Virus record (IMG/VR): IMGVR_UViG_3300011443_000020
Location: 1 to 47,519 of that record
Length of the DNA: 47,519 nt
Reading direction: 5' to 3' (one strand)
DNA from: a virus
Lineage: Duplodnaviria; Caudoviricetes
Part shown: piece by piece, positions 22,370-47,519 of the stretch
How positions within the stretch are numbered: the first letter of the stretch is position 1
Layout of the letters: the number at the start of each line of letters is the position of its first letter
The notes under the pieces: model-generated
What the model saw: the letters and a program-made list of their open reading frames with translations, nothing else
Told to the model about the DNA's origin: nothing
Database searches by the model: none
Position numbers and translations under genes: made by a program

Positions 22370-22654
22370 TCATGGTTCCCATCGTTCGTCGGCCTCCTCC
22401 GCCGCACACCGCGCACAATACGTCCCCGCACACGACGCCATGCACCGCCGGCACCGTCCGTCTTCGACCACAGGGAGGGGCTCGGGCGTCGGCTCAACCA
22501 CGGGCTCCGGCATCGGCTCGGGGATCGGGTCCGGCGTCTCAATCACCGGGGACGGCATCGGACGCTCGACGACGGGCACCGGCCGCGGCGTCGGGTGCTT
22601 TTTCACGGCCGCCTTCTTTGCCACGGGATGTTTCACCAATCGCGTCTTCGCCAT
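22370..22654 (-). CDS. Lys-rich / Pro-Glu-rich protein with a C-terminal CxxC...CxxC
   Basis: ATG overlaps the terL stop; CRRC and CARC. Confidence 0.5.
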   Translation of the reverse strand: MAKTRLVKHPVAKKAAVKKHPTPRPVPVVERPMPSPVIETPDPIPEPMPEPVVEPTPEPLPVVEDGRCRRCMASCAGTYCARCAAEEADERWEP

Positions 22655-24201
22655 CAATACCCCCCTCTGGAGAGTCCCCCGCGCCGCCACCGATACGGCT
22701 CCAGCACGTCCACCTGACTCCGCCGCACCATTGCCGCCTCCCGCCGCGCATGATGCCGCTCCACTTCCCCCATCGTCGGCTGCGCCCCCCCGAAGTTTAA
22801 CTCCAAATACTCCAAACAGTTCTGCCCGTGCTCGTACCACCCATCCTTCTTCGGCTTCCGCACCTGCTTACTTCCCACACTCACTAGGTGCTCGTCCCAC
22901 ACATACCCCGCCTCCAACCCGTCCGTCAGAAACGGCCAACTCTTCGCCCCGTCCGGTCCCACTATCTGCCACCGCTCCGGATTCGCCTCGACCCCAAACG
23001 CCTCCCCCTGCACCGTCCGCCGCCGCATATGCCCCGCGATCCGCTCCACCATCGCCCCCCGCACGTCCGGCGCATTCGCATTCCCCACCCACCGCGCCGA
23101 AAACCCATGCTCCGCCAGCACCTTCACCCCGTTGTTCCGCACCCCCTGCGAATTGTCGTGACTCCCCGCCGGATCACAACACGTCCACACCTCGTCCACC
23201 CCCGGAAACCACCGCGCCCGATACTGCTTCGCGATCGGCGCAAAGTCCTCCAGATACAGGTTCTGCCCCATCACCCCACCCAAGACCCGCAACTCCCCAT
23301 ACGGCGTGAACTGCCCCCAGACAATGCACGGATGGTGCTTCCCGAAGTCAATCGCCTCCAGCAACGGCAGCATCGGATTCACCGACAACATCCGGACATG
23401 GATCGCCCGGTTGAACATCGGCACCAGTCCCCGCTCCGCGTCCCCCCCATACACCGGCGTCCCAATGACGTTCAACCCCCGCTTCCCGAGCACCGCACTC
23501 CGATGCTTCGGATGACTCGCGGGATACGCCAGAATCAGGTTCTCGATCGTCTCGGGTGGAATGTTGTGCGCATTCGCATGGATCGGCGCCGAGTAGTACG
23601 TCCGCCCCTTGAGATGGTTGTCCTCCGGGAATTCCCGGGCGAGCCAATGGTTCTCGTCCGGCGGATTCGGCGTCAGCAGCAGTTGATGGGGCACCCCCGA
23701 CTGTGACAACCGTCCAATCAACTCCAGAAACACGTCGTGCGGGAGCTCTTCGCTCTGGTCGTTGTAGACCATCCCGAGCGTCAGTCCACGCAGCTTCGCG
23801 TATCGCGTCACCTGATCCTGGGCCTTGAGCCCCATGATGTAGACCAGACTCCCATTGGGCAGCAGGTCGTACATCTCATCCGGTTTCCAGACCGGTTGGA
23901 TCCCCGCCTGCGACAAGACGTGGCGCCAGACCGGTTTCAGCTTCGATTGCGTATCCCCATCTCCATACCGGCAGATCAAGGCCTTCAGCCCGGGATGCGC
24001 CATGCACGCATTGAACACTTTCCAGCAAGCCGCCGTCGTCTTCCCGGACCGGAACGCCCCTTCCAGGTCGACCAGACGCGTCGTATCGAGCATGAAGTCA
24101 GAGATGACCCCTGCCCAAACCATACGGTGGACGCGTTCGGACGCGGAGGTACCCGCCTGTGGCAAGGTGAGACTTTTACTAGGCTTTTTGCGGAACGGCA
24201 C
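22654..24201 (-). CDS. terL: Terminase large subunit
   Basis: Walker A GAFRSGKTT, Walker B-like MVYNDQSEE, LLLTPNP coupling motif, RNase H-like AIDFG and CDPAG; start uncertain (24201 or 24123). Confidence 0.9.
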   Translation of the reverse strand: MPFRKKPSKSLTLPQAGTSASERVHRMVWAGVISDFMLDTTRLVDLEGAFRSGKTTAACWKVFNACMAHPGLKALICRYGDGDTQSKLKPVWRHVLSQAGIQPVWKPDEMYDLLPNGSLVYIMGLKAQDQVTRYAKLRGLTLGMVYNDQSEELPHDVFLELIGRLSQSGVPHQLLLTPNPPDENHWLAREFPEDNHLKGRTYYSAPIHANAHNIPPETIENLILAYPASHPKHRSAVLGKRGLNVIGTPVYGGDAERGLVPMFNRAIHVRMLSVNPMLPLLEAIDFGKHHPCIVWGQFTPYGELRVLGGVMGQNLYLEDFAPIAKQYRARWFPGVDEVWTCCDPAGSHDNSQGVRNNGVKVLAEHGFSARWVGNANAPDVRGAMVERIAGHMRRRTVQGEAFGVEANPERWQIVGPDGAKSWPFLTDGLEAGYVWDEHLVSVGSKQVRKPKKDGWYEHGQNCLEYLELNFGGAQPTMGEVERHHARREAAMVRRSQVDVLEPYRWRRGGLSRGGY

Positions 24202-24407
24202 TAGGAACCTAGGCCGAGAAAGGCGCACCACACGCGTCGAATCGACCGGAGGCAGCCCCGCGACCCGGCCGCAAGGTACTCCAGACTCCACCGATACTCC
24301 TGCAGCACGGCCGCATCCGGCCGCCAGACCTCACGATGGGCCTCTGCAAGGCGAGCCGAGATGTCAAACCGCTCTTCGCGGGCATCCGAGTGCAAGGGAT
24401 CCGGCAT
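24201..24407 (-). CDS. Hypothetical protein
   Basis: Stop overlaps the proposed terL start. Confidence 0.35.
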   Translation of the reverse strand: MPDPLHSDAREERFDISARLAEAHREVWRPDAAVLQEYRWSLEYLAAGSRGCLRSIRRVWCAFLGLGS

Positions 24408-24438: not shown

Positions 24439-24684
24439 CTAACGTTTTGACGGATTCGCCTCGAGCAGGAACGGCGGCCGTTCGGTCGAAAACTGCAGCC
24501 GGCAGCCGTCCGGATGGGGCGCAATCCAGACTTCGCGGCCCACGGCGCCAAAATGTAGGCCGAGCCAGGTCACGTCTGGCGCCGAACTACTCTCAGCGAA
24601 CACGGAACGGGGCGCGCGCCAATGTTCGGCGGCCGTAACGGTCCCATGCACCAGCTGTGCGAGCGTACTGCTCTCGTTTTTCAT
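24439..24684 (-). CDS. Hypothetical protein
   Basis: 81-aa ORF between terS and terL. Confidence 0.35.
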   Translation of the reverse strand: MKNESSTLAQLVHGTVTAAEHWRAPRSVFAESSSAPDVTWLGLHFGAVGREVWIAPHPDGCRLQFSTERPPFLLEANPSKR

Positions 24685-24751
24685 GCCGTTTTCGCCCCCA
24701 TTCCGTCATCCGAAAAGCGAAAGTGTGCGGAATCCCCAACAAAACAGGCCT

Positions 24752-24779
24752 GAGTCTGATAAGTAGGATTATGTTAACT
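24752..24779 (+). other. dif-like XerCD recombination site
   Basis: GAGTCTGATAA-GTAGGA-TTATGTTAACT: 11-6-11 layout; right arm matches the E. coli XerD arm TTATGTTAAAT at 10/11; intergenic. Confidence 0.8.
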
Positions 24780-24782
24780 GAG

Positions 24783-25181
24783 CTAAGTCTGTGATACGTC
24801 GATGGTTACGCTGCTCGAGGCGATAGGAAGGCGAATCAGCGGGGTTACGCTGCTGCTGCTCTGTCTGTGCTCGTGAACCACACGCACCAAATCGGTAAAC
24901 GTGCCTCTGACGTCGAGATCCATTGTGAGCGCAGGCGGACCGATGACCCTATCCCATAAACTGTTTAAGGCCTGTATGTTACCCGCTTTGGCCGCCTTTA
25001 GATGGGCCTTGATCAAGGGCTCAAGTTCCTGCAGCACACGCGCGCGAAAGGCGCGAATCGCGCTGATCTTGTCCATCGTGGACTCATTCAGCCGGCCGAG
25101 TGGTCTGCCAGCTCCAGGTCGTTTACCGCCTTTTCGCTTGGTTTTCGGCCGTTCTGGCAGCTCGAGCGGAATATCCTTCAT
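24783..25181 (-). CDS. Putative terminase small subunit
   Basis: GGKRPGAGRP motif, AKAGNIQAL...WDRVIGPP; upstream of terL. Confidence 0.7.
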   Translation of the reverse strand: MKDIPLELPERPKTKRKGGKRPGAGRPLGRLNESTMDKISAIRAFRARVLQELEPLIKAHLKAAKAGNIQALNSLWDRVIGPPALTMDLDVRGTFTDLVRVVHEHRQSSSSVTPLIRLPIASSSVTIDVSQT

Positions 25182-25252
25182 GCTGTTTTCTGAATAATCG
25201 ACGCAAATCGACAGAAAATCAATCGGAAACCTAAAAACAATCAACTTCCCTC

Positions 25253-25281
25253 TTGACGTCCTGATTATCAGTCAGTATCAT
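25253..25281 (+). promoter_or_regulatory. Sigma70-type promoter for the plus-strand island
   Basis: TTGACG-17 nt-TATCAT; the spacer holds the palindrome CTGAT-T-ATCAG. Confidence 0.7.
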
Positions 25282-25314
25282 CATACGTATAGGTTGATTA
25301 AAGGGAGAGACGCT

Positions 25315-25422
25315 ATGGACAGATATGACATCGCAATCGGCGCGGCGCTCCTCGGTTCGTTCGTTCTGGTGACTTGTGCGCTCGTTATTGGGTATGTCGT
25401 GACGGCCGGTCAAATCCCGTAA
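25315..25422 (+). CDS. 35-aa single-TM protein
   Basis: Hand-translated MDRYDIAIGAALLGSFVLVTCALVIGYVVTAGQIP; AAGGGAG RBS. Confidence 0.55.
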   Translation: MDRYDIAIGAALLGSFVLVTCALVIGYVVTAGQIP

Positions 25423-25466
25423 ATCTCAACGGGTTCATCACTCTGTCCTGAAAGGGATGCAAGACG

Positions 25467-26219
25467 ATGACAAAAGCAAACGGGTCCATTCTCTATCGGG
25501 GTCCCTCGATGTTAGACGGTCAGCCGATCGTCGTGGTCGCAACCGGACTGGCGCACAAGTCTCACAATCCCAAGACCGGCGATATGGTCCAAACCTACAT
25601 TATGCCGGACCGGATTCGACCATTGGACGCGTCCCGAACGGGTCAAGATGCGTCCGTGTGCGGGGACTGCAAGCATCGGCCGGCGAATCTCGGAACCTGT
25701 TACGTGACACTCGTGCATGGTCCGAACGCCGTCCACCGGACACTCCAACATGACGGCTACCGTTACGCGTCCTGGGCCGATTTGGAATCCTTCGGAGAGA
25801 ACCGCTACGTCCGTCTGGGCACATGGGGCGACCCGATGGCGGTTCCGGTGGCCGTCTGGCGCGCGCTGCTGGCAAAATCCCTCGGTCATACGGGCTACAC
25901 CCATCAATGGGCGAATCCCACGATTGACCGCGCGCAACATGCCGGGATCTGTGATCTGGTGATGGCGTCCGTGGATACGCCAGCAGAGGCACGGGATGCA
26001 CGCGCGGCCGGGTATCGCTACTTCAGGGTTCGGCAGGCTGGGGATACGCTGCTCGACAACGAGATTATCTGCCCTGCCAGCAGCGAAGCGAACTACCGCC
26101 GCACCTGCCAAACCTGCAACGCGTGCAATGGGTCGGTTCGGTCATCACGCGCATCAATCGCGATCAACGTCCACGGCAATGGCGCCAAAAAATTCAGCCT
26201 TCGTGAGGTATCTGCATGA
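25467..26219 (+). CDS. Conserved Cys-rich phage protein, possibly an Fe-S / radical-SAM-like fold
   Basis: NPKTGDMVQT, CGDC...CYV, VRLGTWGDP, TGYTHQW, MASVD, CPAS...CQTCNAC...HG. Confidence 0.6.
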   Translation: MTKANGSILYRGPSMLDGQPIVVVATGLAHKSHNPKTGDMVQTYIMPDRIRPLDASRTGQDASVCGDCKHRPANLGTCYVTLVHGPNAVHRTLQHDGYRYASWADLESFGENRYVRLGTWGDPMAVPVAVWRALLAKSLGHTGYTHQWANPTIDRAQHAGICDLVMASVDTPAEARDARAAGYRYFRVRQAGDTLLDNEIICPASSEANYRRTCQTCNACNGSVRSSRASIAINVHGNGAKKFSLREVSA

Positions 26220-26422
26220 ACGCCGAACCGCTCGTATTTATCCGCGCCACACGCGTCTATTCCGTTCCGCCCGTCTGTTCCGCACAATGGACCCCAGCAG
26301 ACTGGGAGCGATCTTCGCGTCTGGTATATGAGCCACTAACACTCACCATACTCGGGATGACGTGGCGCGCCACAGGCGAACGCGACGCGCGTGGGCAATT
26401 GCTGTACGAGGTGTCACGATGA
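26216..26422 (+). CDS. Hypothetical protein
   Basis: ATGA-coupled on both sides. Confidence 0.5.
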   Translation: MNAEPLVFIRATRVYSVPPVCSAQWTPADWERSSRLVYEPLTLTILGMTWRATGERDARGQLLYEVSR

Positions 26423-26715
26423 CCGCTCACGATACGCTCTCCGCCATACAGGCTCGCACCTTGCCGATCGTGGGCGATGTCGCCCTACTCTCAGCAAAAG
26501 AGCTCGACCGCCAAATCCAAGCGCGCGCGCGACGCATCGAAGCCTTGACCATCGACCGCGCGGCCCTGGTCGCACAGTCCGAGCACTACAACCGGGCCGG
26601 CATGTACAAATCCGCCAAATCGAACACGGCAGGCGCGGTGAACCTGACCCGGGCGATCGTCGACTACGCGCGCGAGCTCGCCGTACTGGCGCGAGAATTG
26701 GAACACCGATCATGA
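26419..26715 (+). CDS. Hypothetical helical protein
   Basis: ATGA-coupled on both sides. Confidence 0.5.
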   Translation: MTAHDTLSAIQARTLPIVGDVALLSAKELDRQIQARARRIEALTIDRAALVAQSEHYNRAGMYKSAKSNTAGAVNLTRAIVDYARELAVLARELEHRS

Positions 26716-26945
26716 AACGCAAACCACGGTACACCGGTCCGGTCATTCCCGAATCACAAATCGAGTGGATTGTCGACCGGTTGCACGTCAGCTGCAGCCA
26801 TCTGCAGGTCGCGCGCGAAGTCTGGCCCAGAACGCGGAAATTTGACTGGCCGAAAATCGCCCGCAAGCAAGCACTCCGAATCGCGTTCAACCGCCACCAG
26901 ACAAACCGTGAGCTGTACGCGTACGTGATGGGGGGGATGAAATGA
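26712..26945 (+). CDS. Hypothetical basic protein
   Basis: ATGA-coupled on both sides. Confidence 0.5.
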   Translation: MKRKPRYTGPVIPESQIEWIVDRLHVSCSHLQVAREVWPRTRKFDWPKIARKQALRIAFNRHQTNRELYAYVMGGMK

Positions 26946-27154
26946 CCCGATTGATTGAACTCGTGAAAGCCGGCGATCGCGTAACAATCGTCGACCGGTT
27001 TGGCGTAGCCCAGACCGGCCGGGCCGTACTCCCCTGCTCCGCGGGCGGTTGGGTACTCAACATGGGTGGCCGCTATGGGACGCCCGGCATTGCGACCGAT
27101 GACAACACGATCAAGGTACTGCGATCGCCTATGCGTCGACGTCCGGTGATATAG
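26942..27154 (+). CDS. Small SH3-like hypothetical protein
   Basis: KAGDRVTIVDRFG...WVLNMGGRYGTPGIA. Confidence 0.5.
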   Translation: MTRLIELVKAGDRVTIVDRFGVAQTGRAVLPCSAGGWVLNMGGRYGTPGIATDDNTIKVLRSPMRRRPVI

Positions 27155-27269
27155 CGTAGACTCTCACTTGATGGCCGAACGGCTATCAGGAGATACTAGA
27201 CGGGCCTCCGGGGTCATCCCGTGAGGCCCGTTCACACGTACATCTATTGACGAACGGGGAGATCTGTCT

Positions 27270-27404
27270 ATGCCGTCCTATATCATTCGGAACGCTGACG
27301 ACCAGCTGTGGCAAGCCTTCCGCGCGCGCGCGGCCGCGGAAGGTCATAGCCTGCGCTGGCTCATTCTCGAGCTCGTACGCCGCTATGTGAAACACGGCCT
27401 GTAG
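27270..27404 (+). CDS. Ribbon-helix-helix (Arc/FitA-like) DNA-binding protein
   Basis: Hand-translated MPSYIIRNADDQLWQAFRARAAAEGHSLRWLILELVRRYVKHGL; GGGGAG RBS. Confidence 0.75.
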   Translation: MPSYIIRNADDQLWQAFRARAAAEGHSLRWLILELVRRYVKHGL

Positions 27405-27581
27405 GCCAGGAGAGAACCGACTATGCGATTGTGAAAGAGCCTGCGCGGTCCGGCGAATGCTTGGACGGATGGAATAGCACGCGCGCGAATCACCCGCGCA
27501 GGGATGAAGGCCTTAGTGTAGCCGAACCGTCGACGTGTGCCAATCGGCGCGAGCCTGCCAGGCCGGACGGGTGGCTCGAGG

Positions 27582-27597
27582 TGTTCCCCGTGGAACA
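27582..27597. promoter_or_regulatory. parS-like centromere site
   Basis: TGTTCCCCGTGGAACA, one mismatch from the palindromic chromosomal parS variant TGTTCCACGTGGAACA; intergenic. Confidence 0.65.
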
Positions 27598-28583: not shown

Positions 28584-28595
28584 CTCAAATTTCAC
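28582..28595 (+). repeat. 14-bp direct repeat, copy 2
   Basis: GACTCAAATTTCAC at the convergent gene boundary. Confidence 0.8.
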
Positions 28596-29641
28596 AATCC
28601 CGGCGTTTTGGGTTTCGATCCCACGACCGCCCCACTCGACCCCCGGGGCTCTGCCACCAGCGTCATCGTGGGAAACGTCTGCTGCAGACTCGGAATGTCC
28701 GCCACCTTCAGCACATGCGTCGTCACCTTGTACGCTTGCCCGAGCAAATCCGTTAAATGCTTATGGGCCAGGCACGTCTGCTGCCACTCGGTATACAGGC
28801 TGATCGTCGGCACCCCGAGGCTCAACCCGAGCTGCGCGAGGCCCCCGTACGTCCCGATGAACCCCTGACTCCCCTTCAACACCGCACTCTGCACCGCCAG
28901 GTTGGTCTGCGGGGTCAGGGTCGTCAGATGCCGGAGGTCGAACACGTTCGGGATGACCGGGAACGGCTGGTCCACATGCTCATCCGCATGGACCCCCCCG
29001 CTCAAGAGCACCACCGGCATCTTCTGCGCGAGGTGTCGGACCGTCGACTCCCCAATCTGGGTCGTCAGGTCACACGCCGGCCACGTCGGGCGGTAGTAGA
29101 ACCGGGCCGTCAGGTACACCGGGGGCAGCTGAATGCCCTCAGGGAGCGGCGGCGCCGGCAGGGGCGTGTAGCTGGTGTGCTGCTGCAGCCACGAGATGCC
29201 CCGCTGCGTCTCCCAGAACGGCCAGAGCACCCGGTACATCCACGAGGGGGAGATCACGTCGTAGGCGGTCACCCCAGCGGCCTTGGCGGCATCCTGGACG
29301 ACCGATCGGTCCCACACCGTGGGCGTCACCTGCTTCAGGAGCCCGGTCGCCTGCTGCTGCCGCAGGTTCTCGACCCGCACACTCCGCGGATCCCGGAGGG
29401 CATACAGCTCGACCGCGTGTTTCGCCGGATACCAGGCCGCCGCCCCGCCGCGGGTGATGGGGATGAGCCGCTCGGGGTCGACCTCGAGCGCCTTCAGGAA
29501 CGGAATCCAGTACAGCGTCTCGAACCCGACCTCCCCCCGGAACGGTCCCGCGAGGATCGGACGGGTGCTCCGCTTAAGCTTCTGCTTGAACGCGCGCCAG
29601 ATGAGCGGCGAGATATGCTTCGGCCACGAGCCAATCGTCAT
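28592..29641 (-). CDS. Putative GT-B glycosyltransferase (GT9-like C-terminus)
   Basis: AGPFRGEVGFE.LYWIP N-terminus; SQGFIGTYGGLAQLGLSLGVPTISLY. Confidence 0.6.
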   Translation of the reverse strand: MTIGSWPKHISPLIWRAFKQKLKRSTRPILAGPFRGEVGFETLYWIPFLKALEVDPERLIPITRGGAAAWYPAKHAVELYALRDPRSVRVENLRQQQATGLLKQVTPTVWDRSVVQDAAKAAGVTAYDVISPSWMYRVLWPFWETQRGISWLQQHTSYTPLPAPPLPEGIQLPPVYLTARFYYRPTWPACDLTTQIGESTVRHLAQKMPVVLLSGGVHADEHVDQPFPVIPNVFDLRHLTTLTPQTNLAVQSAVLKGSQGFIGTYGGLAQLGLSLGVPTISLYTEWQQTCLAHKHLTDLLGQAYKVTTHVLKVADIPSLQQTFPTMTLVAEPRGSSGAVVGSKPKTPGL

Positions 29642-30317
29642 AAGTATCCAGACTCAAACCCGTCTCATCCAGCACGGGCATCCCCCCGACCTTCCGGCCG
29701 CTGATGGTCCCATGCACCTCCACGTTACTCGTCCACCCGACCTCGAGGCTGCTCGTCTGCACCCACAACGGGGGCAGACTCTGCGTCGGGCTTGAGTGCC
29801 ACGGCGTCCCATCCGGGTGCGCCTGGGGCACGTAGGCCGTGATCGGCATCCCCGGATGCTGCCACCGCCACATTTTCCCCGGATGCTCCCGGACCGGCCG
29901 GATCGCCCGCAGGCTGTCCACCGCCATCCCGTCCCGCAAGAGTTCCGCCCAGGCCGCGGTCAGCTGCGCCGGGGTTCGCAGGGGACTCGTCGGCCGCAGG
30001 ATCATGTAGGCATCCGGCCGCCGGCCGACGTCCGTCCGGAGTTGCAGTAAGGGCTGCAGCCACTGGAAGTCCGTCGAGCGGTCCTGGTGCGCCGGCGCCC
30101 CGAGGCGATGCACGTCGAGCCGCACGGGATACCGGAGGCAATGCTGCTCGATCTCCTGGTCGTCCGTGCTCACCCAGACTTCACTGAAGAGCGACCGACA
30201 GACCGCGACCTGCGCCAGCGTGTAGTCGATCAGCGGGACGCCGGCAAGCGGCCGCAGGTTCTTGCGCGGAATCCGCTGCGACCCCCCACGCGCCGGAATG
30301 CAGGCGATCAGCTTCAT
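29574..30317 (-). CDS. neuA: Acylneuraminate cytidylyltransferase (CMP-nonulosonate synthetase)
   Basis: IACIPARGGSQRIPRKN, VWVSTDD, LRPTSPLRT, SLDTYDDW. Confidence 0.9.
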   Translation of the reverse strand: MKLIACIPARGGSQRIPRKNLRPLAGVPLIDYTLAQVAVCRSLFSEVWVSTDDQEIEQHCLRYPVRLDVHRLGAPAHQDRSTDFQWLQPLLQLRTDVGRRPDAYMILRPTSPLRTPAQLTAAWAELLRDGMAVDSLRAIRPVREHPGKMWRWQHPGMPITAYVPQAHPDGTPWHSSPTQSLPPLWVQTSSLEVGWTSNVEVHGTISGRKVGGMPVLDETGLSLDTYDDWLVAEAYLAAHLARVQAEA

Positions 30318-30712
30318 CGCGTCGTCGGCAGGCCCCCGGCCTCCGGCAGTCCGAACTGATCCTCGACATGCACCCGGTCGTTGTAGTGCGGTGTCGACGT
30401 CTCGAAAAACGTGCAGGGGGTGATAGCCTCGACCTGGTGAATCGCGCCCGGAGGCACATGGAAACTCTCGCCGGACATCATCAACGTCTGGACGATCTGC
30501 CCGTCCACGACCGTCCGCACCCACGCGCGGCCCGACCAGAGATGGAACGTCTCGTCCTTGTCGACGTGGTACTGCAGCCCGCCCTTCGTCCCGGCGTGCA
30601 TATGCAGGATCTTGCCGAGATAGTGCGGCGTCTCCGCGATAAAGACCTCCTGGCCCCAGTCGCGGGGAAACGTCTGCGGCGTGTAGGACTCGACCGTGGG
30701 GGTGTCAGCCAT
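30314..30712 (-). CDS. Cupin, mannose-6-phosphate isomerase-like
   Basis: WGQE, YLGKIL, LQYHVDKDETF, VPPGAIH, ETSTPH. Confidence 0.8.
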   Translation of the reverse strand: MADTPTVESYTPQTFPRDWGQEVFIAETPHYLGKILHMHAGTKGGLQYHVDKDETFHLWSGRAWVRTVVDGQIVQTLMMSGESFHVPPGAIHQVEAITPCTFFETSTPHYNDRVHVEDQFGLPEAGGLPTTR

Positions 30713-31613
30713 AGATTTTGTATCCTTCCGGTCCGTGGGTGCGTCGCATCTTCGCGAGGGGGACGGCTTCGGAGGCGTAGACCCGCTTGACCCCATCACC
30801 ACACGCATGATGAGCGCGCGCCAGGTCACGAGCAAGCCGGCGAAGACCAGATGGCTCCAGTGAAAACGCATGATCGGTCCCCTTCGCCGTCCGGTTCAAC
30901 GTGACGTGCTTCTCGATAATCCGCGCCCCGAGCATGTACGCCGCGACACTCATCGCGATCCCGACATCGTGCCCGCTCCACCCGATGACGAGCTCAGGAT
31001 ACCGCTCGCGGAGCGTCGTGATGCACCGGAGGTTGAGCTCGGCGTAGTCCGCCGGATACGCCGCCGTGCAGTGGAGGACCGCGAGGGCACAACTGCCGCC
31101 GCCGAGGACCGCGACCGCGCGATCAATCTCTGCGAGGCTGCTGCCGCCTGTTGAGAGGACCACCGGGACGCCCAGGCTGCGACAATGGGTGAGGAGGGGC
31201 ACATCCGTCACCCCTCCCGAGGCAATCTTGAGCGCCTGGACCCCCAAGCGCAGCAACCGATCCGCCGACCGCTCGTCGAACGCCGTCGCGAACCACGGAA
31301 TCCCCACCCGCTGGGCCTGCGCCGCAATCGCGACATACCCCTCGTCGGGCAGCTCGAGCGCCACGCGGTGCGCCCCGTAGGTGTCCCCGAAGCTCGCCGC
31401 GTTGCGATAGTCCCGGTTCAGCAGTGCCTGGCTGTAGAGCGTCGCGTTGTCGCGCGCCTGGAACTTCACCGCATCCGCGCCGCACCCCGCCGACATCCGC
31501 ACGAGCGCGAGGGCGTCCCGCACGAGGCCGCCGTGGTTGTTCCCCACTTCCGCCACGAGATACGCGGGCGTGTCGTCCGCAATCCGCCGGCCCGCGAGCA
31601 CAAACTCACGCAT
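30705..31613 (-). CDS. neuB: N-acetylneuraminate synthase family protein, short form without the C-terminal SAF domain
   Basis: VAEVGNNHGG, GADAVKFQ, KIASG, LSTG, LHCTAAYP, GWSGH, IEKHVTL, GTDH. Confidence 0.92.
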   Translation of the reverse strand: MREFVLAGRRIADDTPAYLVAEVGNNHGGLVRDALALVRMSAGCGADAVKFQARDNATLYSQALLNRDYRNAASFGDTYGAHRVALELPDEGYVAIAAQAQRVGIPWFATAFDERSADRLLRLGVQALKIASGGVTDVPLLTHCRSLGVPVVLSTGGSSLAEIDRAVAVLGGGSCALAVLHCTAAYPADYAELNLRCITTLRERYPELVIGWSGHDVGIAMSVAAYMLGARIIEKHVTLNRTAKGTDHAFSLEPSGLRRLARDLARAHHACGDGVKRVYASEAVPLAKMRRTHGPEGYKIYG

Positions 31614-32397
31614 GGGCCACCTCCGGCGTCCGCACGATCTCGACCAGCGCATCCCAAGTGTAGATCCCCGGCTGGAGCACCGGCGAGAGCGCATCGGTGT
31701 TCGTGTAGATCCGCTTCCCCGCGTCCACCGCCGCCCAGATGCTGGTGTTGTTCTCCCGCACCGCGGGATCGAAGTAGGCCGCGACCGCGTCGCATTCCTG
31801 CAGCTCACGCGCGAGCGCATCGTCCCCGAGGTACCCCAGTTCCCGCAGCCGCGACCCGAAGATGGCCCGCATCAACGCCAGGCTGTCCGCGAGGCCGGTG
31901 TCCCACGGCGTCCCCTCATGCACCGCCGTCGACAACGCCACGGTGTAGTCGGGATGCTCCGCGTCGAGTTGCGCCTTGAGCGCGACCATGTGTGCCGGGT
32001 GGAGCTTGTGCGCCATCCCGAAGATCAGCACGCGATACGCCCCGCGCGTCGGGTCACCCGTGATGGTCGACGGACACCACGCGGCAATCGCGTCCAGGCG
32101 AATCGTCCGCGCCATGATCAAGAGCGCCCGGTTGCCGCAGTAGATATACCGCGCCGCCTCGATCAAGTACTCCGGACAGGGGCCGTGCAGGAACAGATCG
32201 AACTCCTCGAGGACATCCCCCGCGAAGAGCCGCGTCTTGTCAGGAATCTCCGAGGCCTTGATCGAGAGCAGCGGCAGCGACACGGGCGTCCCGAGCGGCA
32301 CATACGGCACGCCGAGCCGTTTGGCGAGTTGCACGTTGAACTTCGCCACCCCGCACGTCAGCGGGTTCATGTGATAGCCCATCACCACATCAATCAC
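31606..32397 (-). CDS. Putative glycosyltransferase (reduced GT-B, GT4-like)
   Basis: CGVAKFN...LA, LGYLGDDALARELQECD, SIWAAVDAGKRIYTN; gene context. Confidence 0.55.
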   Translation of the reverse strand: MIDVVMGYHMNPLTCGVAKFNVQLAKRLGVPYVPLGTPVSLPLLSIKASEIPDKTRLFAGDVLEEFDLFLHGPCPEYLIEAARYIYCGNRALLIMARTIRLDAIAAWCPSTITGDPTRGAYRVLIFGMAHKLHPAHMVALKAQLDAEHPDYTVALSTAVHEGTPWDTGLADSLALMRAIFGSRLRELGYLGDDALARELQECDAVAAYFDPAVRENNTSIWAAVDAGKRIYTNTDALSPVLQPGIYTWDALVEIVRTPEVAHA

Positions 32398-33425
32398 GAT
32401 GGCACCTTGTAGACCAGCACCCGCCCCTGTCCGTTGTGATCGAGGGACGCCTCGAGGTCCGGACAGCGCGTGCAGCCTTCCAGCACGAACAACGCGCGCA
32501 GCAGGTCCTGGTTGAGCAGCGTGATGTGCGTCGGATCGAGCGTGTCGGCCGTGTCAAAGTCGAAGAGATGCGGCTTCGCGGTGAACCGCGTCGTCACGTA
32601 GACGTACCGCTTCGACATCTGCACGAGGTTCTGCACGGTCGCCGTGATGAGGCGGCACGGGATGTGTTCCAGCACTTCCCGACAGATCACCAGCTCGGAT
32701 CGCAGTTCGTCGTAGAGGTCCGTGAGCCATTCGGGGCTGCTGTCCATGGACGTGATGTCGGCTTGCCAGATGCGGCACTTCGTCGACCAGTTCCCATGCG
32801 CCTGCACGTCGATCCCCTTGCAGGGCACGTGCAGTTCTTCCAGCATCGTCAGTAAGTGCCCGGGGCCACACCCGACATCCAGCACCGACGACGGCGTGAA
32901 CGTGTCCTTGATGAGTTGCGCGTGCGGTCCCTCGGCAAACCGACGACTCGTCAGATCGTAGGGCGTCACCGGCACCCACGGCTTGGCCTCGGGTTGCGTG
33001 CTCACCCACGACTCGAGCGCCGCGAGCTTCTCCGTGTTCTGCCGACGCTGGTAGTCCGCGAGCAGTTCCGACGACGACTCCATCAACGGACTCTCCAGAT
33101 ACCGCGTCCCCGTGCCGACCTCTCGCAAGGCGTCCATGACATCCGAGGGGAACATGCGCCCCGCCCAATCCACACCCTTCACGAACCACGTCGGCTTGAG
33201 TCTCCGGATCTCGTCCGCCAGCGGGAACCCGCACGACACCCCACGCACCCACCGCAGGCCCGCCAACACGAACGCGCGCTGTCCCAGTGGGACGAGGGGT
33301 GGATGCCGTGCCAGATCGTCACCCACGACGACATGCACCAATTCGCCCGCGTCATTCGCGGCGCGTTCCAAAAAACTGACGTGCCCCGCATGGAGCGGAT
33401 CGAACACGCCCGACGTCAGGATCAT
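32394..33425 (-). CDS. Fusion of an HxGH cytidylyltransferase-like domain and a class I SAM methyltransferase
   Basis: SGVFDPLHAGH, FVKGVDW, SSSELL; then VLDVGCGPG, GIDV, ICREVLEH. Confidence 0.85.
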   Translation of the reverse strand: MILTSGVFDPLHAGHVSFLERAANDAGELVHVVVGDDLARHPPLVPLGQRAFVLAGLRWVRGVSCGFPLADEIRRLKPTWFVKGVDWAGRMFPSDVMDALREVGTGTRYLESPLMESSSELLADYQRRQNTEKLAALESWVSTQPEAKPWVPVTPYDLTSRRFAEGPHAQLIKDTFTPSSVLDVGCGPGHLLTMLEELHVPCKGIDVQAHGNWSTKCRIWQADITSMDSSPEWLTDLYDELRSELVICREVLEHIPCRLITATVQNLVQMSKRYVYVTTRFTAKPHLFDFDTADTLDPTHITLLNQDLLRALFVLEGCTRCPDLEASLDHNGQGRVLVYKVPS

Positions 33426-33901
33426 TCGGGCGGTACCGGGCCGACCGTGTCGACCACATCCCCGACCACCGTCGCCTTCTGCATGAAGTTCGCGGCCGGT
33501 TCCCCGAACTGCGCCCCCACCGCCGCGACGACTTCCTTCTTCGCCGCTCCGGGCCGCATCTGTCGCGCGTTGGCCTCGCTCTTCGCCTTCTGAATCTGTG
33601 CCCGCCAGTCGGCCGGCATCTTCATCAGCACTTCCTGCCCCTTCTCACCGCGCACCACGAACCCCTCGGGGCTCGCCTGGAACGCGCCGAGCTGCTCGGC
33701 ATCCGCGAGCTCGTCGGGCCGCACGTTCTCCCAGCCCTTGTACTTCGCGCGCCAGATGTGATCACTCGCCACCTGCGAGTTGAACCACCGGCACTCGTAA
33801 CTGTCATCCTTCAGCGTGACCGGCAGCGACGGTTCGCCAAAGGGGTTCTGCAGCCGCCGCTCGAGGACGGCAATGTTGGGTCGCTTCTTTGGTGGGGCCA
33901 T
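33422..33901 (-). CDS. Conserved head-module protein
   Basis: YECRWFN...GWENV...VLMKMP pattern, which I associate with scaffold/capsid neighbourhoods. Confidence 0.55.
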   Translation of the reverse strand: MAPPKKRPNIAVLERRLQNPFGEPSLPVTLKDDSYECRWFNSQVASDHIWRAKYKGWENVRPDELADAEQLGAFQASPEGFVVRGEKGQEVLMKMPADWRAQIQKAKSEANARQMRPGAAKKEVVAAVGAQFGEPAANFMQKATVVGDVVDTVGPVPPE

Positions 33902-34722
33902 TAGCCGTCATCCTCCAGGCTGTTCGACGTCCCGGGTTTGAATCCTTTGGTCAGGTCCGCGTACCGCTTGCTGTCAATGCCACGGACCGCCATGACCTTC
34001 GACTGAATGTCATCGAGCGACGTCCGCGCGAACGGCGTCGAGCGGTTGCCCGCCGCTTCGGTGATGAGCGCCGGCGGCGCCGCGGGGGCCGGGGCGGGCG
34101 TCTCGAACGCCGCATACCCGCGCACGACCGCGGCGTAGGTCTTCGCAATCGTCGGGTCCGCGAGATGCTGCAAGCCTTCGGGGGTCTGCGCCATCGCATT
34201 CCACACCTGGCGCAACGCGTCGGTATTCACCCCGGGGAGCTTCGACACCTCGTGGAAGTTCGCGATCGCCTTGTCGCGCGCGTTCTGCTGGTGGAGGGGT
34301 TGCAGTTGGGCCTGCGCCTCCTGCCCCACGTACTGCGCGAGCTTCGCCGCCCGCTTCACGTCGGGCTTGCCCTCGTTCGTGTAGAGGTCCAGCGTCGTCG
34401 CGAGCTCGACGAGCTTGGGGTCGTCACCGGTTGGAGCAGGCGGCTGCGACTTCTGCCGGCGGAGCTCTTCCAGTTCCGGTTGCACCTGCTCGACCCACCC
34501 GGCAATTTCATCGAGGCGCGACGCCTTGTCCTTGAACGTCTTCTTCTCCGCCCGCTCCGCGAGCAGGGCCGAGAGCGGCACCATCTTCTGGCCCGCGACG
34601 TCGACGGCGTCGGGCTCTTCTGGCGCCGGTGGTTCGGGGGGCGGCGCCGGCGGCGCGGCCGGGACCGGCGTCGGCTCTGGCGGCGTCGGCGGTTGTCCGG
34701 GTTCTACATCGACATCAGGCAT
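33901..34722 (-). CDS. Putative capsid scaffolding protein
   Basis: Pro/acidic N-terminus, VPLSALLAER, coiled coil, C-terminal helix-turn-helix (MAVRGIDSKRY). Confidence 0.65.
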   Translation of the reverse strand: MPDVDVEPGQPPTPPEPTPVPAAPPAPPPEPPAPEEPDAVDVAGQKMVPLSALLAERAEKKTFKDKASRLDEIAGWVEQVQPELEELRRQKSQPPAPTGDDPKLVELATTLDLYTNEGKPDVKRAAKLAQYVGQEAQAQLQPLHQQNARDKAIANFHEVSKLPGVNTDALRQVWNAMAQTPEGLQHLADPTIAKTYAAVVRGYAAFETPAPAPAAPPALITEAAGNRSTPFARTSLDDIQSKVMAVRGIDSKRYADLTKGFKPGTSNSLEDDG

Positions 34723-35105
34723 TACGCTACCTCTTCCATATCCACCACGCACAACACGTCCGCGACGCGCAGCATCAAGACGACCTCGCCATCGACGGTG
34801 ATCTGCTGCCCGGCGTCCGCCGAGAACACCACGAAATCCCCGACCGCAATCGGCGGCGTGGGCGTGAGATCCCGCAGCAGGGTCGCCGCATCTTGCAACA
34901 GCGGCTCGTGATAGACGTTGAAATTCTCCAGACGACGCGCGAGGTCGTGCGCCTCGCGCCGGAATGGTGACAGCTGCGTCCCGAGCGCGATGACGGTCCC
35001 TGTCGTTTCCTGCGGCCAGTGCCGCACGAGATGCAGCCCCGAAGCTGTGATGGCCTCCGGCGGCTCCGGCTTCACGAGCAGTCGATCCCCTAACGGTCGC
35101 AGCAT
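34722..35105 (-). CDS. groES: Co-chaperonin GroES
   Basis: LRPLGDRLLVK, TASGLHL, GTVIALG, VGDFVVF, VDGE...DVLCVV. Confidence 0.9.
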   Translation of the reverse strand: MLRPLGDRLLVKPEPPEAITASGLHLVRHWPQETTGTVIALGTQLSPFRREAHDLARRLENFNVYHEPLLQDAATLLRDLTPTPPIAVGDFVVFSADAGQQITVDGEVVLMLRVADVLCVVDMEEVA

Positions 35106-35207
35106 TTATCGCTTCCTCACAAGATAGGGGATCGCCACGGCGCCCACCCAGTACCCGATGCTGTACCCGAGCAACAACGCCACGACGCCTCGTGCGACGT
35201 CTTCCAT
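35106..35207 (-). CDS. 33-aa membrane peptide
   Basis: MEDVARGVVALLLGYSIGYWVGAVAIPYLVRKR; fills the gap exactly. Confidence 0.45.
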   Translation of the reverse strand: MEDVARGVVALLLGYSIGYWVGAVAIPYLVRKR

Positions 35208-35515
35208 TACACGCCTCCCCGGCGTTGCGCGTATATCCCTCGTGGGTCGAGCGCCGCGCCTTGTTCGTGCTGACGCTCCAGCCGCCGGAGTTGCTCCTCC
35301 GGCCACGACAGCACCTGGTTCACCGCATCACTCGCGGCATCGACCGCTTGCACGGCGGCCTCGACGCTGGTGTGCTTCCCGAGCGCGGTCTGGATGGCGA
35401 GCTTGATCTCCCGGCCATACCCTTCCCCGCCCCAGCGAATCCGCGCCATCGTCACGACCTGCTGCCACCCTGGACTATGCACGAGGGCGTGCAGGTCTTC
35501 CCGTTCATCAGCCAC
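35207..35515 (-). CDS. Small helical head-module protein
   Basis: LVHSPGWQQV; typical position downstream of a portal. Confidence 0.5.
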   Translation of the reverse strand: MADEREDLHALVHSPGWQQVVTMARIRWGGEGYGREIKLAIQTALGKHTSVEAAVQAVDAASDAVNQVLSWPEEQLRRLERQHEQGAALDPRGIYAQRRGGV

Positions 35516-36155
35516 GCTGTGCCACCAGATTCACAAAGCGATCACACCACGCCCACCAGTCCCGGAACCGCTCCCGGTCAATGGGCGTCAAGGGGTCCGT
35601 CATCCAGTACAACTGCAACCCCGCCTCCGCGAAGCGGTCATAGAACTGCTCGGACGTTACGCCGATCTTCTCCAGCATCGGCGGCCAGACTTCGCAGACC
35701 CAGAGCGGACACGTCGCGAGCAGCCGTGAGGCCCCCAGCAGGACGTGGTACTCGCCGCCTTGCACGTCGAGCTTCACGCACGCCACGGGCTGATCGGTGA
35801 TCGCGTCGAGCGGCACGCCATGCACTTGATCCGGTCCCTTGAGATCGGGAACCGCGGCGGCGAGCAGTGAGGAATGCACCGACGAGGTCCCGAGATGCAG
35901 CACCGCCGGACCGGTCGTTTCCGTCAGGGCAACCTGCATCACCGTCACGCACCCGTGTTGTTCGGCAATCCCGTCGAGCGCCTGCTTGCACCTGGCGTCC
36001 GGCTCGATGGCGTACACCCGCCCCGTGGGACCGACCCGTTCGGCCGCGACGAGGGTCATCGTGCCGATGTTCGCCCCGCCGTCGAGGCACACGTCTCCGG
36101 CCTGCAGCACCCGCTGGAGGTACGCGCCGACATCACCTTTCGGCGGCCGCGTCAC
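35508..36155 (-). CDS. FkbM-family methyltransferase
   Basis: LDGGANIG, VYAIEP, VKLDVQGGE. Confidence 0.9.
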   Translation of the reverse strand: MTRPPKGDVGAYLQRVLQAGDVCLDGGANIGTMTLVAAERVGPTGRVYAIEPDARCKQALDGIAEQHGCVTVMQVALTETTGPAVLHLGTSSVHSSLLAAAVPDLKGPDQVHGVPLDAITDQPVACVKLDVQGGEYHVLLGASRLLATCPLWVCEVWPPMLEKIGVTSEQFYDRFAEAGLQLYWMTDPLTPIDRERFRDWWAWCDRFVNLVAQRG

Positions 36156-38110
36156 TGGGGAATAGTCGGTCCTGGAGGTGGCGCCATGCCGGGCGCCATC
36201 GGGGGCGCACCCATCCCCAGCATCCCCGGTAGTGCCTGGGGTTGCCCGACCTGGTTGGACGCGCCGAGAAACGCTTGCTTATTGGGAATCCGATAGACGC
36301 GGACGAACTGCTCGAGCATCGCCTTGGCGGCGTTCGGGTTCATCAGCAGCACCTGCTGCAACATCGGGAACGTCTGCAGCATCGCCGGCAACGCATGCAG
36401 CATCTGCGTGAAGTCCGCCCGGAGGGCTCGGGGATCGGCCGTCTCGACGCTGCCACGAGGTTTGCCGCGATACCGCCCGTTCAACATCGCTGGCGTGATG
36501 CTCGGGTCGTCCACGGGCACGCCGCGGGCCTGGAGCGTCTGCTGCATCCCCGAGGGCATCGTCATCGGCACGGCGTTCGGGGCCGTGATCGCCCGCTTCC
36601 ACATCTCGTGGCGGACCTGGAAGAGATCCTCCATCGACTCCTGGAACCGCCGCACGACGAGGTCCATGCGGACGAACGACTGCTCGGTCGCCATCTGCAC
36701 TTCACCGAGGGTCTTGCTGTCCTGCACCGTCTGCCCGGAGGCGATGTCGTTGACCCCGACGAGCCGCTCGGCGATGCGCTCGAGGCCCCGCTCCCAGTCG
36801 ATGACCGAGTTGGGCACGTCGGTGATCTGCATCTGCTCGACTTCGCGCATGTCGCGCACGTCGATCGTCTGCGACGGGCCGAAGGGCTGGTCCTGGGGAT
36901 GCCACAAGGCCCCGGTGAGCCGTTTGATAGGCGCCTGCACCGCGAGGCTCGAGCGGTCCGCGCGCATGTTCCGGACGGCCGTGTGCTCCTCGATGACCGT
37001 CACGAGCTTGTGCCCGATGAGGGAAAAACCTTCCGTCACCCGATCCGGCCGGGGGAACAACACGACCGAGATGTACCGGGGGATCTGGATGGGGTCGAAC
37101 TTGCACCGGAGCAAGACCTGCTGGTTGAGGTTGATGGTCGCGAGGTACCACCGCTCCCCGGACCCGTCGAGGTCCTGGAGGATGAGGAGCTCCCAGAGCT
37201 CCTTCTCGACCGTGGCGTTCTCTTGGGTGGCAATCCCTTGCCCGGACCGCTCGAGGGTCGGGGTGGGTTCGCGTTCGCTGGTCCGCGTCAGGCTCGCAAC
37301 CGCGTCCGTGTCGTAGTCGCCCTTCTTGGCGCCGGCCTCGAGCTCGGGGATGCGCCGCCAGAACCGCTTGCCGTAGCCCCAGATCTCGTCGCGGTCGCGC
37401 GCGTGCCCGGGGAAGATCAGCGAGTCGCTGTACGGCAGCACCCGATACTGCGGCCCGACCTGGATGGGTTCGGTGCTGTCGATTTGAATCTGCGCCGCCG
37501 GCACGCTGTCGTCCTCGACCTCGACATGCCGCCCGGCCGCGTCCATCTCGAACTCCGGCTGACCATCGGCCTTGAAGACCGGGACCATCTCCGGCATCCC
37601 CGTCTCGGCATTCACGGAGGGATGCAGCAGGAGCTTCGCCCAAATCTCTTTGCGCACCGCCCGGGTGTCGGTCCCCTCGTAGCACTCGAGCAGCCCCCGG
37701 GGTTCAAGGAGGGCATTCAGGGACCAGCGATCGAGGACACTTTGGAGGCGTTCCTCTTCCGCTTTCCACTGGTGGAACTCTTCGACGATCGGGGCGCGGT
37801 CCGCGGCGTCGCCCCAGCCTTCCACGGTCCAGATCGGCTCGACGGCGATCGTCTTCATCAGCCGCGCATGGAGCGCATCGACGTTCTGCGTGCCGAGGTA
37901 GGACGTGAGATCCGCGGCGCCCGGCCAGGGCATGGACTGCCCGAGACGGGTCCGGGCCTGTTCGTAGAGCTGGTGCCAGTAGTCGACTTCCCGCTCGGTC
38001 GACCCGCGCGCGTCGAGGGCGTGCTGCACCTCGTCACAGAGACGGATCGCTAACTGCCGCTGCTGCTCAGGAGTGAGCTTGATGTCGAACGCGCTGGCCT
38101 TTGGCGCCAT
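36152..38110 (-). CDS. Portal protein
   Basis: 652 aa; PWPGAADL, KTLGEV (TATE-like), Pro/Met/Gln-rich C-terminus typical of podovirus portals. Confidence 0.85.
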   Translation of the reverse strand: MAPKASAFDIKLTPEQQRQLAIRLCDEVQHALDARGSTEREVDYWHQLYEQARTRLGQSMPWPGAADLTSYLGTQNVDALHARLMKTIAVEPIWTVEGWGDAADRAPIVEEFHQWKAEEERLQSVLDRWSLNALLEPRGLLECYEGTDTRAVRKEIWAKLLLHPSVNAETGMPEMVPVFKADGQPEFEMDAAGRHVEVEDDSVPAAQIQIDSTEPIQVGPQYRVLPYSDSLIFPGHARDRDEIWGYGKRFWRRIPELEAGAKKGDYDTDAVASLTRTSEREPTPTLERSGQGIATQENATVEKELWELLILQDLDGSGERWYLATINLNQQVLLRCKFDPIQIPRYISVVLFPRPDRVTEGFSLIGHKLVTVIEEHTAVRNMRADRSSLAVQAPIKRLTGALWHPQDQPFGPSQTIDVRDMREVEQMQITDVPNSVIDWERGLERIAERLVGVNDIASGQTVQDSKTLGEVQMATEQSFVRMDLVVRRFQESMEDLFQVRHEMWKRAITAPNAVPMTMPSGMQQTLQARGVPVDDPSITPAMLNGRYRGKPRGSVETADPRALRADFTQMLHALPAMLQTFPMLQQVLLMNPNAAKAMLEQFVRVYRIPNKQAFLGASNQVGQPQALPGMLGMGAPPMAPGMAPPPGPTIPQ

Positions 38111-38638: not shown

Positions 38639-38666
38639 CGGATTCACCCAATCCGGTGGCCTGAGG

Positions 38667-38715
38667 GCCTTTGTCCTTTTCATGTGCATAATATGCACCT
38701 GAAAAGGACAAAGGC
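38667..38715. repeat. 49-bp near-perfect palindrome
   Basis: GCCTTTGTCCTTTTCATGTGCATA-A-TATGCACCTGAAAAGGACAAAGGC; 23 of 24 pairs complementary. Confidence 0.9.
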
Positions 38716-38794
38716 AGCCAAGCCATTTGACCTTCGGTTAGGTATTCGCATACCTTAAAGGGAATATTAACACTGTGAAGGGGTTGAGCTATAC

Positions 38795-39927: not shown

Positions 39928-40692
39928 CTACACTCCACATCTACCCGAACAGTCGTTGGTGAAATGGTTCGTGTCATCAAGGAAGCTCCCCTGTGCCGCA
40001 AAGTCCAGTTCTCGCAGCGGAATCATGCTGCGGTGGATGGCCGCCTGCCGTTGCGCTCGCAGTCGGTCGTCGTAGGCGATCGCCCGCTGCCAGCCTGCAG
40101 GGTCATGCACCTGCAAATCCCGCCAGCCTCGGTCAGACCGCCACGGGCAGAACACGCACGCGCTCTTGCGTGGGACGGGTAAGCCGTGCTCACGTAAAAG
40201 GTCGGCGCAGTCGTGCTTTCGCATCCCAGCATCCACGAGCGGGTAGAGATGCCGCAAATACTTGAACCGGGAATCACGCATCCGATCAGCTTCGTCCAGG
40301 CTGATCCCGATCATGGCCGCCGCCTTCTTCACCCCGCGCCGCTTCATCTCTGCCCGTGTCGCCTGCCGGATCGGCGTCAGCTTGTAATCGCGGGTGCAGT
40401 TCTGCGACAGAGGCGCAACGTCGCCGTCCGTGTTTCGCACATAGGCCGGGACACGAATCACGGCATCATCGGACAGCCGGCCCCGTGTCACGTCCAACAC
40501 TTGCAGCCCGTGGTTGAGCGCCCATTCCGACATGATGAGAAAGTGTTGATACGTCCATGACGCCTCGTCTTGCGTGTCTGCAAAAATAGCGAGGTCCGCC
40601 GAGGGGCAATCGCGCAGCCCCAACGCCGCCATGACTAACAGCGCAGACGACTCGACCCCAGCACCGAGCGACACATATCGAAACTCGGTCAC
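39928..40692 (-). CDS. PAPS-reductase-like / adenine nucleotide alpha-hydrolase family protein
   Basis: PP-loop variant SLGAGVESS, IFADT, CTRDYK, IGISLDE, YPL, KSACVFCP, terminal CSGRC. Confidence 0.8.
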   Translation of the reverse strand: MTEFRYVSLGAGVESSALLVMAALGLRDCPSADLAIFADTQDEASWTYQHFLIMSEWALNHGLQVLDVTRGRLSDDAVIRVPAYVRNTDGDVAPLSQNCTRDYKLTPIRQATRAEMKRRGVKKAAAMIGISLDEADRMRDSRFKYLRHLYPLVDAGMRKHDCADLLREHGLPVPRKSACVFCPWRSDRGWRDLQVHDPAGWQRAIAYDDRLRAQRQAAIHRSMIPLRELDFAAQGSFLDDTNHFTNDCSGRCGV

Positions 40693-40790
40693 GGTGCCCG
40701 CCTTGCCATGAGCAGCAGAATGACGACGCCCAGACAAATCCCCACCAGTCCCCAAGCGAGTTGAGAAAGCACCATCTCTGCCTCGCTCAT
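40689..40790 (-). CDS. 33-aa membrane peptide
   Basis: MSEAEMVLSQLAWGLVGICLGVVILLLMARRAP; ATGA/GTGA-coupled. Confidence 0.45.
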   Translation of the reverse strand: MSEAEMVLSQLAWGLVGICLGVVILLLMARRAP

Positions 40791-42151: not shown

Positions 42152-42179
42152 ATCTTACCCGTTTCCTCCTCTGTGTCAA
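42152..42179 (-). promoter_or_regulatory. Sigma70-type promoter
   Basis: TTGACA-16 nt-TAAGAT. Confidence 0.6.
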
Positions 42180-47461: not shown

Positions 47462-47519
47462 TGCACCACGGGCTGCTCCTATTTTGCAATCTTCCACACG
47501 ATGACGCCGGGCATCCGGC

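Follow-up and report, generated by a model that had tools for sequence, protein, structure and literature searches.

Introduction

In phage P1 the recombination site loxP lies near pac, the start of packaging, where Cre can use it to circularise headful DNA and to resolve dimers. Lox sites enclosed in one head allow circularisation (PMC2841073). Other elements carry only the site and rely on the recombinase of the host. At cer of ColE1 and psi of pSC101, host XerC and XerD (XerCD) act in cis on plasmids without a recombinase of their own (PMC5357621). Mobile elements that integrate by making use of Xer (IMEXs), namely CTXphi, VGJphi, TLCphi, the gonococcal island, dif-type gokushoviruses and double-jelly-roll phages, have a dif-like site and no integrase (PMC5357621, PMC7062461 and PMC12715192), and an inovirus has been described at dif (10.1101/633727). 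Bacillus phage phi29 has host-type parS sites and no Par genes, the sites being bound by host Spo0J (PMC2731898). The present report describes a 28-bp dif-type site, together with a nearby parS-like site, in the 47,519-base record of a tailed phage (Caudoviricetes; IMG/VR record IMGVR_UViG_3300011443_000020). The whole record is called the window, and positions without a label refer to it; G and L numbers are our labels for other records and loci.

The strongest pattern, which the initial annotation of the window had missed, is the association of dif with the terS-terL packaging region and with a box resembling a binding site for integration host factor (IHF). The locus has a counterpart for several parts of the systems above. 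As in P1, a putative recombination site lies near the likely packaging start, where it could circularise headful DNA and resolve dimers. As at cer and psi, a putative core site for host XerCD is accompanied by a candidate accessory site on an element without a recombinase gene. No paper on dif beside the terminase genes of tailed phages was found in the open-licence PMC and bioRxiv literature, in which Xer use was described only for non-tailed phages, islands and plasmids. What appears to be new is that a tailed phage carries a probable cis site for host Xer recombinases and that this site is linked to the packaging region.

The dif-type site and its surroundings

The site occupies positions 24752-24779 of the plus strand and has the 11-6-11 layout of dif, with a XerC-side arm (24752-24762), a 6-bp spacer (24763-24768) and a canonical XerD-side arm (24769-24779). 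As the initial annotation had reported, it is genuinely present; no other stretch of the window matches with two mismatches or fewer, and 0.01 matches are expected from 100 shuffles. The motifs used in the searches for dif and parS were afterwards checked against host genomes.

Along the minus strand, a terS-like open reading frame (ORF) is followed by four bases, dif, two small ORFs and terL, which places dif 0.7 kb before terL. The gene for the terminase large subunit, terL (22654-24060, minus strand), matches PF04466 (Terminase_3) and phrog_2, and its true start may lie up to ~90 bases further right. The two small minus-strand ORFs, of 68 (24201-24407) and 81 amino acids (24439-24684), matched no family. 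The ORF on the other side of dif (24783-25181, minus strand, 132 amino acids) is likely the terminase small subunit, judging from its position before terL. No family scored above threshold for it in profile searches; its look-alikes in the Atlas are hypothetical phage proteins, one set with DUF5681 at 16%. The stop codon of this ORF lies 4 bases from dif and is overlapped by an IHF-like box (24784-24796, plus strand), which begins 4 bases past the XerD-side arm and has one mismatch to YAANNNNTTGATW, which we take to be the IHF consensus and used to score all boxes. The same offset between box and dif is found at L271, L318, L319 and L322.

In one sequencing run, contigs break at dif and a flank of a second phage (the G232 type) is present, and a chimeric join was therefore considered. 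It was rejected: the gene order is coherent, and contigs from two other studies span the site with no differences over 101 and 174 bases.

Neither a tyrosine integrase or Xer gene (PF00589, phrog_1 and a profile of our own) nor a serine recombinase (PF07508), ParB (PF02195) or ParA (PF13614) was found in six frames of the window. A Pfam scan of 208 window ORFs (82 + 126) gave the same result, in agreement with the initial annotation, which had noted no integrase, Xer or Par genes. The record is classed as linear and is 99% complete according to CheckV. The gene for a carboxypeptidase-regulatory-domain protein runs off the window start (2-1267, minus strand; the N-terminal 422 amino acids, 81% identical to the 500-aa protein P0008), and its final 12 codons and stop are found at the other end (47479-47517, minus strand), which joins the map into a circle. 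Alignment to P0008 indicates that ~93 bases are absent, all inside this gene, and therefore no integrase or par cassette can sit outside the window. A 47,568-base contig was tried as a closure of this gap and set aside in favour of the ~93 bases given by the protein alignment.

Recurrence in other phages

Loci of terL relatives were scored for dif, taking the best 80 of 128 and a null of 160 sequences. Four of the 80 exceed the best null sequence; in three of these the site lies 420-781 bases before terL, a zone that makes up 7.4% of bases, and in the fourth it lies 8.4 kb before. The closest terL relatives have no dif in the sequence covered. Searching 50 terL relatives as whole records gave nine matches to a loose dif pattern, compared to three control hits; seven look real, one of these being borderline. 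These 50 were searched for integrase with PF00589 only, and the idea that dif and integrase exclude each other in the terL family was considered and dropped (overlap of one record, ~1 expected). In a second, distant terL lineage, all three members at >=57% identity carry dif 218-278 bases before terL, and no dif was found in the three distant loci scored (30-36% identity).

A scan of viral sequences for host-type arms returned 119 loci, 50 of which (the longest and GC-rich) were searched as whole records. A home-made terL profile found only six terminases in the dif loci, and phrog_2, used instead, found terL in 29 of the 50 records. In 20 of these 29 (21 of 30 sites) dif lies within 2.5 kb upstream of terL; of the remainder, two have dif up to 0.3 kb downstream and seven at >=4.5 kb. 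When records with similar flanks are pooled, 12 of 21 groups have dif up to 2.5 kb before terL, as do 7 of 15 groups when only records of >=29 kb are taken. Dif is found in either orientation (9 same, 12 opposite), and the sites are not concentrated at contig ends (1/80 within 50 bases, 0.8 expected).

Two of the 119 loci belong to G232/G237/G505, a mosaic phage co-occurring with that of the window. It has the same 28-mer, a ribbon-helix-helix (RHH) protein of 84% identity and a distant terminase. Here too dif stands between a terS-like ORF and terL, in this order, but its block is inverted relative to terS-terL. The block shared with the window is 110 bases long (24714-24823 and L271:2413-2522), and the identical dif lies within a 39-base block. 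In the G232 type the terS-like ORF ends at 2465, with its stop codon inside the spacer of the site at 2451-2478.

Over 14 sites the majority base has a frequency of 0.84 and 0.90 in the two arms, which were the selection criterion, compared to 0.46 in the spacer and 0.44 and 0.43 in the flanks. The dif spacer drifts as fast as its flanks. IHF-like boxes, which are motif matches only, were found within 60 bases of dif at 7 of 13 sites in the group of the window phage (controls 1/26), 10 of 28 other GC-rich viral sites (3/53) and 34 of 53 AT-rich viral sites (25/102). None of 30 host sites had one (controls 0/60).

Separately, an AT-rich group of ~35-38-kb phages (L083-L199, for instance G208, G228, G236 and G238) has a canonical dif with the spacer TGTATA 0.4-1.3 kb before terL and an IHF-like box at a fixed offset; no integrase was found in this group. 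In cultured phages there was no dif-length match to the window site. Dif-like sites were seen in Escherichia phage PhiR41_1 (L340:3501; 108 kb, with annotated ParA and integrase) and, in intergenic positions, in Rheinheimera phage Barba2A (L341:3501) and Pseudoalteromonas phage H101 (L342:3001).

Likely host

The host is likely a member of the Vicinamibacterales, as suggested by the relatives of three genes and by the two sites. Those of terL occur in four genome contigs from four different groups, one of them a Vicinamibacterales metagenome-assembled genome (MAG). Capsid relatives occur in 2 of 401 Vicinamibacterales genomes, one at 58% and one weak, and one named homologue of the end-spanning carboxypeptidase-regulatory-domain protein comes from a Vicinamibacterales MAG. 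Viral scans with the end-spanning protein or with the window terS gave no relatives of either.

The dif core is present in 134 of 151 Vicinamibacterales genomes. Among 31 host dif sequences fetched, 23 are distinct, and four of these have both arms identical to the window dif, with no mismatches. The same four differ from the window spacer at 3 to 6 of 6 positions, and T stands at spacer position 5 in 30/30 host sites where the window has G. The parS of the host is a perfect 16-mer palindrome in 5/5 Vicinamibacterales genomes, from which the window site differs at one base. To this extent the initial description of the two sites as host-type is borne out. A genome of the same order (G149) has 12 dif-like matches on small contigs, resembling pdif modules.

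Proposed role of the site

The reading that we favour, and to which we give about even chances, is that host XerCD recombine one phage dif with another, circularising terminally redundant genomes or resolving multimers, and do not insert the phage at the dif of the host. Pac lies in or near terS in P22, SPP1 and P1. The window phage, with its Terminase_3-type terL, probably packages by headfuls from a pac in or near terS as well, so that the first headful would contain two copies of a site that lies 4 bases past terS. Headfuls of 102-110% of the genome, circularised by recombination, have been described (PMC9006064). This range would give 1-5 kb of redundancy here, into which a site at 0.4 kb from the start of terS would fit. 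Host XerC and XerD could then join the two dif copies on incoming DNA, like Cre on loxP in P1, and could split circular multimers of the genome as at cer and psi. IHF might bend the accessory DNA, as PepA and ArgR do at cer, or might serve the cleavage of pac. Host ParB (and SMC) could load at parS, as in phi29. Because recombination of the phage site with itself has identical partners, both spacer and orientation would be free, as is observed.

A wider version of this reading is possible and, on balance, doubtful. According to it, a widespread class of tailed phages has swapped Cre/lox for host machinery in the form of a dif core and an IHF box at the packaging start, a position that would bring the site into the terminal redundancy. 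XerCD acting free of FtsK would circularise these genomes on entry and keep them monomeric. In some members an additional parS would allow persistence as a 'gene-less' plasmid prophage that depends entirely on host XerCD and ParB/SMC.

Several observations weigh against self-recombination at the phage site. Homologous recombination can do the same job. The distribution of dif is patchy, at 4/80 terL-relative loci, and of 15 relatives that are >=90% complete, two have a good dif (8-17 kb from terL), three have a PF00589 integrase and ten have neither; most relatives lack dif, and the site is therefore dispensable. The clustering of flank-similarity groups upstream of terL, 7 of 15 in records of >=29 kb, has P ~3e-5 under a null of uniform position. 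This null is lenient, as intergenic stretches are concentrated around terS. Five of the seven IHF-positive sites in the group of the window phage are close kin. Taken over 12 phage records, FtsK orienting polar sequences (KOPS) are not polarised with respect to dif (33 towards, 36 away), and the activation of XerD is the weak step for this reason. In the window 2 point towards dif and 3 away, compared to 4 and 0 in host flanks (E. coli-type motif). A variable spacer is also found among the attP sites of integrating gokushoviruses, as described in PMC7062461. The XerC-side spacer bases are shared with the chromosomal dif of 1 in 401 Vicinamibacteria genomes, and one GC-rich Myxococcota-like chromosome fragment has the whole spacer of the window, with five arm differences. 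The position of pac, the identity of terS and the host are moreover points that we infer.

Alternative explanations

The alternative that survives best, although we consider it unlikely, is that dif is the attP of a tailed IMEX: host XerCD would integrate the phage at the chromosomal dif, and the prophage would split terS from terL. The absence of a phage integrase from the window is consistent with this. Of the 50 dif-bearing records, PF00589 found a tyrosine integrase in two and phrog_1 in three, leaving 47/50 without phrog_1; among the 19 complete records one has an integrase and 18 do not (serine recombinases were not searched for in this set). Integration that begins with XerC needs homology on the XerC side only, as described for VGJphi in PMC5357621, and the spacer of G529 is GTATGA while that of L320 is identical to the window. 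The spacer is also identical in five related variants whose flanks are 74-83% alike. Against this last point, the stop codon of the terS-like ORF inside the G232-type spacer explains part of the spacer constancy.

Among the contigs of three runs, one of them probably the source of the record, whose depth of 2-18 shows presence only, no host flank is joined to dif, and the sole foreign flank there is that of the G232-type phage. A scan of metagenomes for the exact spacer gave nine loci. One is identical to the window and not independent of it, six are of the G232-type kind, and the other two are a low-GC contig that is unrelated and a GC-rich Myxococcota-like chromosome piece. No hybrid host-phage junction was found at these nine loci or at MAG matches. 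The strong capsid relative in the Vicinamibacterales genomes was recovered solely close to the beginning of a contig, where no dif is present. One locus with the same spacer, L315, was rejected as a relative (34% GC, non-phage genes), and the two dif of G205, 36 kb apart, are not attL and attR; they belong to two related phages in tandem (77-88% self-similarity).

In the case of G224 the phage is integrated elsewhere. This 64-kb prophage lies between 28-bp repeats resembling the 3' end of a tmRNA or tRNA gene, has its own divergent tyrosine integrase (phrog_1, E 4.7e-19) and carries an intact dif ~70 bases after an Sf6-type terS, mid-prophage (L302:3475-3502 and L305). Since it was integrated by its own integrase with dif unsplit, dif is not the attachment site there. 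PF00589 had missed this integrase, and the integrase searches were therefore repeated with phrog_1. An O-antigen ligase-like gene lies between terS and terL of G224, and G677 and G022 also carry dif plus an integrase. The initial proposal that the phage integrates at dif, and the search for relatives integrated there that it called for, thus received no support from the low-depth contigs, the metagenome loci or the MAG matches. A possible true tailed IMEX is G222 (L270:2025), a provirus record without integrase in which a canonical dif lies 1.4 kb from the end and is followed by host-like genes; there is no second dif at the other end.

It is rather improbable that XerC and XerD bind the site without recombining it, whether to unload SMC, to recruit decatenation or, with IHF, to aid terminase at the packaging start. 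XerD unloads SMC in Bacillus, as described in PMC12322038, and would be a natural partner for a loader at parS. The conserved arms, free spacer, missing KOPS polarity and tie to terS are all compatible with binding alone. However, the site keeps its two arms with precisely 6 bases between them, which is the geometry that strand exchange requires, and most dif carriers have no parS.

A plasmid-like prophage with coupled cis sites, segregated at parS by host ParB and SMC and monomerised at dif by XerCD, is improbable as well. The parS-like 16-mer (27582-27597) is there as initially annotated, and is the only window match at up to two mismatches (0.01 expected from shuffles). It has one mismatch from the host palindrome TGTTCCACGTGGAACA, so it is an imperfect palindrome; that it is a site for host ParB is plausible. 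The two host-type sites are 2.8 kb apart, and the window encodes a replication-initiator domain and an RHH regulator. A plasmid-type replicon with partition genes was not found in the window, where neither ParA nor ParB was found and the initiator domain is of phage type, and there is no sign of a lysogenic state. Dif and parS are 240 bases apart in G022, which has an integrase. In G676, an unrelated complete phage of 42 kb without phrog_1, dif lies 1.7 kb before terL and a perfect parS 2.7 kb beyond dif (L397:7344 and 10001), inside a 663-aa replication ORF.

No coupling of the two sites is seen. In the record G505, whose dif is the same 28-mer, nothing comes within two mismatches of parS. 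Dif-bearing records have parS in 4/50 cases within two mismatches and in 1/50 within one. The terL relatives carry a parS-like site (up to two mismatches) in 8/50 cases, compared to none in a reversed control; these are scattered, several lie inside long coding frames, and they overlap with dif in one record, where ~1 is expected. Of the viral loci retrieved with the parS pattern, the first 80 (L345-L424) were compared with dif, and 17 have a loose dif match compared to 10 controls, one of them convincing. The window has a single, imperfect copy, while 76 of these 80 loci have the perfect palindrome and four the window variant. The viral collection is estimated to hold the parS pattern in ~2,800 stretches; 44 of the fetched loci lie outside long ORFs, and host-type parS is common in phage records. 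A single chromosome-mimicking module of dif and parS, as first proposed, is not upheld, and parS is likely a separate, optional add-on. Conservation of the sites, for its part, is partial: dif recurs before terL in several lineages with the patchiness described above, and parS is not kept even in a record with the same dif.

A neutral relic of the host chromosome, or one shuffled between phages, would suit the patchy distribution and the 110-base block shared, in opposite orientation to terS-terL, with the mosaic phage, but is very improbable given arms that are conserved while spacer and flanks drift, a position that recurs in many lineages and an IHF-like box that is absent at host dif.

The phage genome

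Divergent from the terS run is a plus-strand operon (25467-27154) for a 250-aa phrog_2554 protein and several small ORFs, with a sigma-70-like promoter match before it (25253-25281, plus strand; 10/12, a consensus match only). The operon ends, as the initial annotation had it, in the gene for a 44-aa RHH protein (27270-27404, plus strand; Arc/FitA-like), confirmed by PF22513 (E 8.5e-6, just under the cut-off) and Arc-like PHROG matches, after which comes parS. Homologues of this protein adjoin dif in G232, G219, G209 and L285. The two sites had been said to bracket the operon and to be intergenic. The operon does lie between them, but so does the minus-strand terS-like gene, with dif inside the minus-strand run. 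Dif is intergenic by 4 bases, and parS can be called so insofar as it overlaps only unsupported open frames.

The gene set is podovirus-like and includes terL, a capsid gene, a portal of SU10 type, an internal virion protein, GroES and sugar enzymes, and the closest terL matches in cultured phages have ~25% identity, which leaves the phage without a close cultured relative. The C-terminal domain of a phage replication initiator is encoded at 40787-41194 (minus strand; phrog_9474, E 4.6e-6); a polymerase or helicase was not found in the window. A block at 28592-38110 (portal, GroES, methyltransferases, NeuB, cupin, cytidylyltransferase and GT9) precedes terS/terL. In G003 and G007 the order is instead terL-portal-...-GT9-capsid, which makes the window order a block swap, and no repeats able to explain a mis-join at this block were found. 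Mom-like (XF1762 family; 42176-42643) and PAPS-reductase-like genes (39928-41145) suggest DNA modification. The early region contains a 34-base inverted repeat, 85% complementary with a 1-base gap (38657-38725).

Comparison with known systems

The lifestyle of a phage is commonly called from genes such as those for integrase, ParAB or Cre. If the proposed role is true, such calls miss phages that use host XerCD or ParB through cis sites only, and a 28-bp site would tell to which group the host belongs. With a dif tied to terS, Xer would have a role beyond dimer resolution and IMEX integration, and its activation would probably be independent of FtsK. The role of dif could be addressed with a 120-bp fragment.

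The window site has the layout of the chromosomal dif of Vicinamibacterales and arms identical to some of them, but it is on a phage, its spacer departs from the host pattern, an IHF-like box adjoins it and KOPS polarity is missing. The IMEXs named above are islands or lack a tail, and they occur with dif on either side, whereas this is a 47.6-kb podovirus-like phage whose dif has both arms near-perfect and for which the three runs, nine metagenome loci and MAG matches gave no integrated copy. Compared to phi29, which has five parS sites and uses them to become entrapped in spores, the window has one imperfect site that is not conserved in close kin. Cer and psi are plasmid sites with PepA, ArgR or ArcA as accessory factors; the window site is on a tailed phage and has a chromosome-like core with a 6-bp spacer and IHF as its candidate factor. 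P1 also has parS, and encodes both Cre and ParAB, whereas the window phage would use host proteins only.

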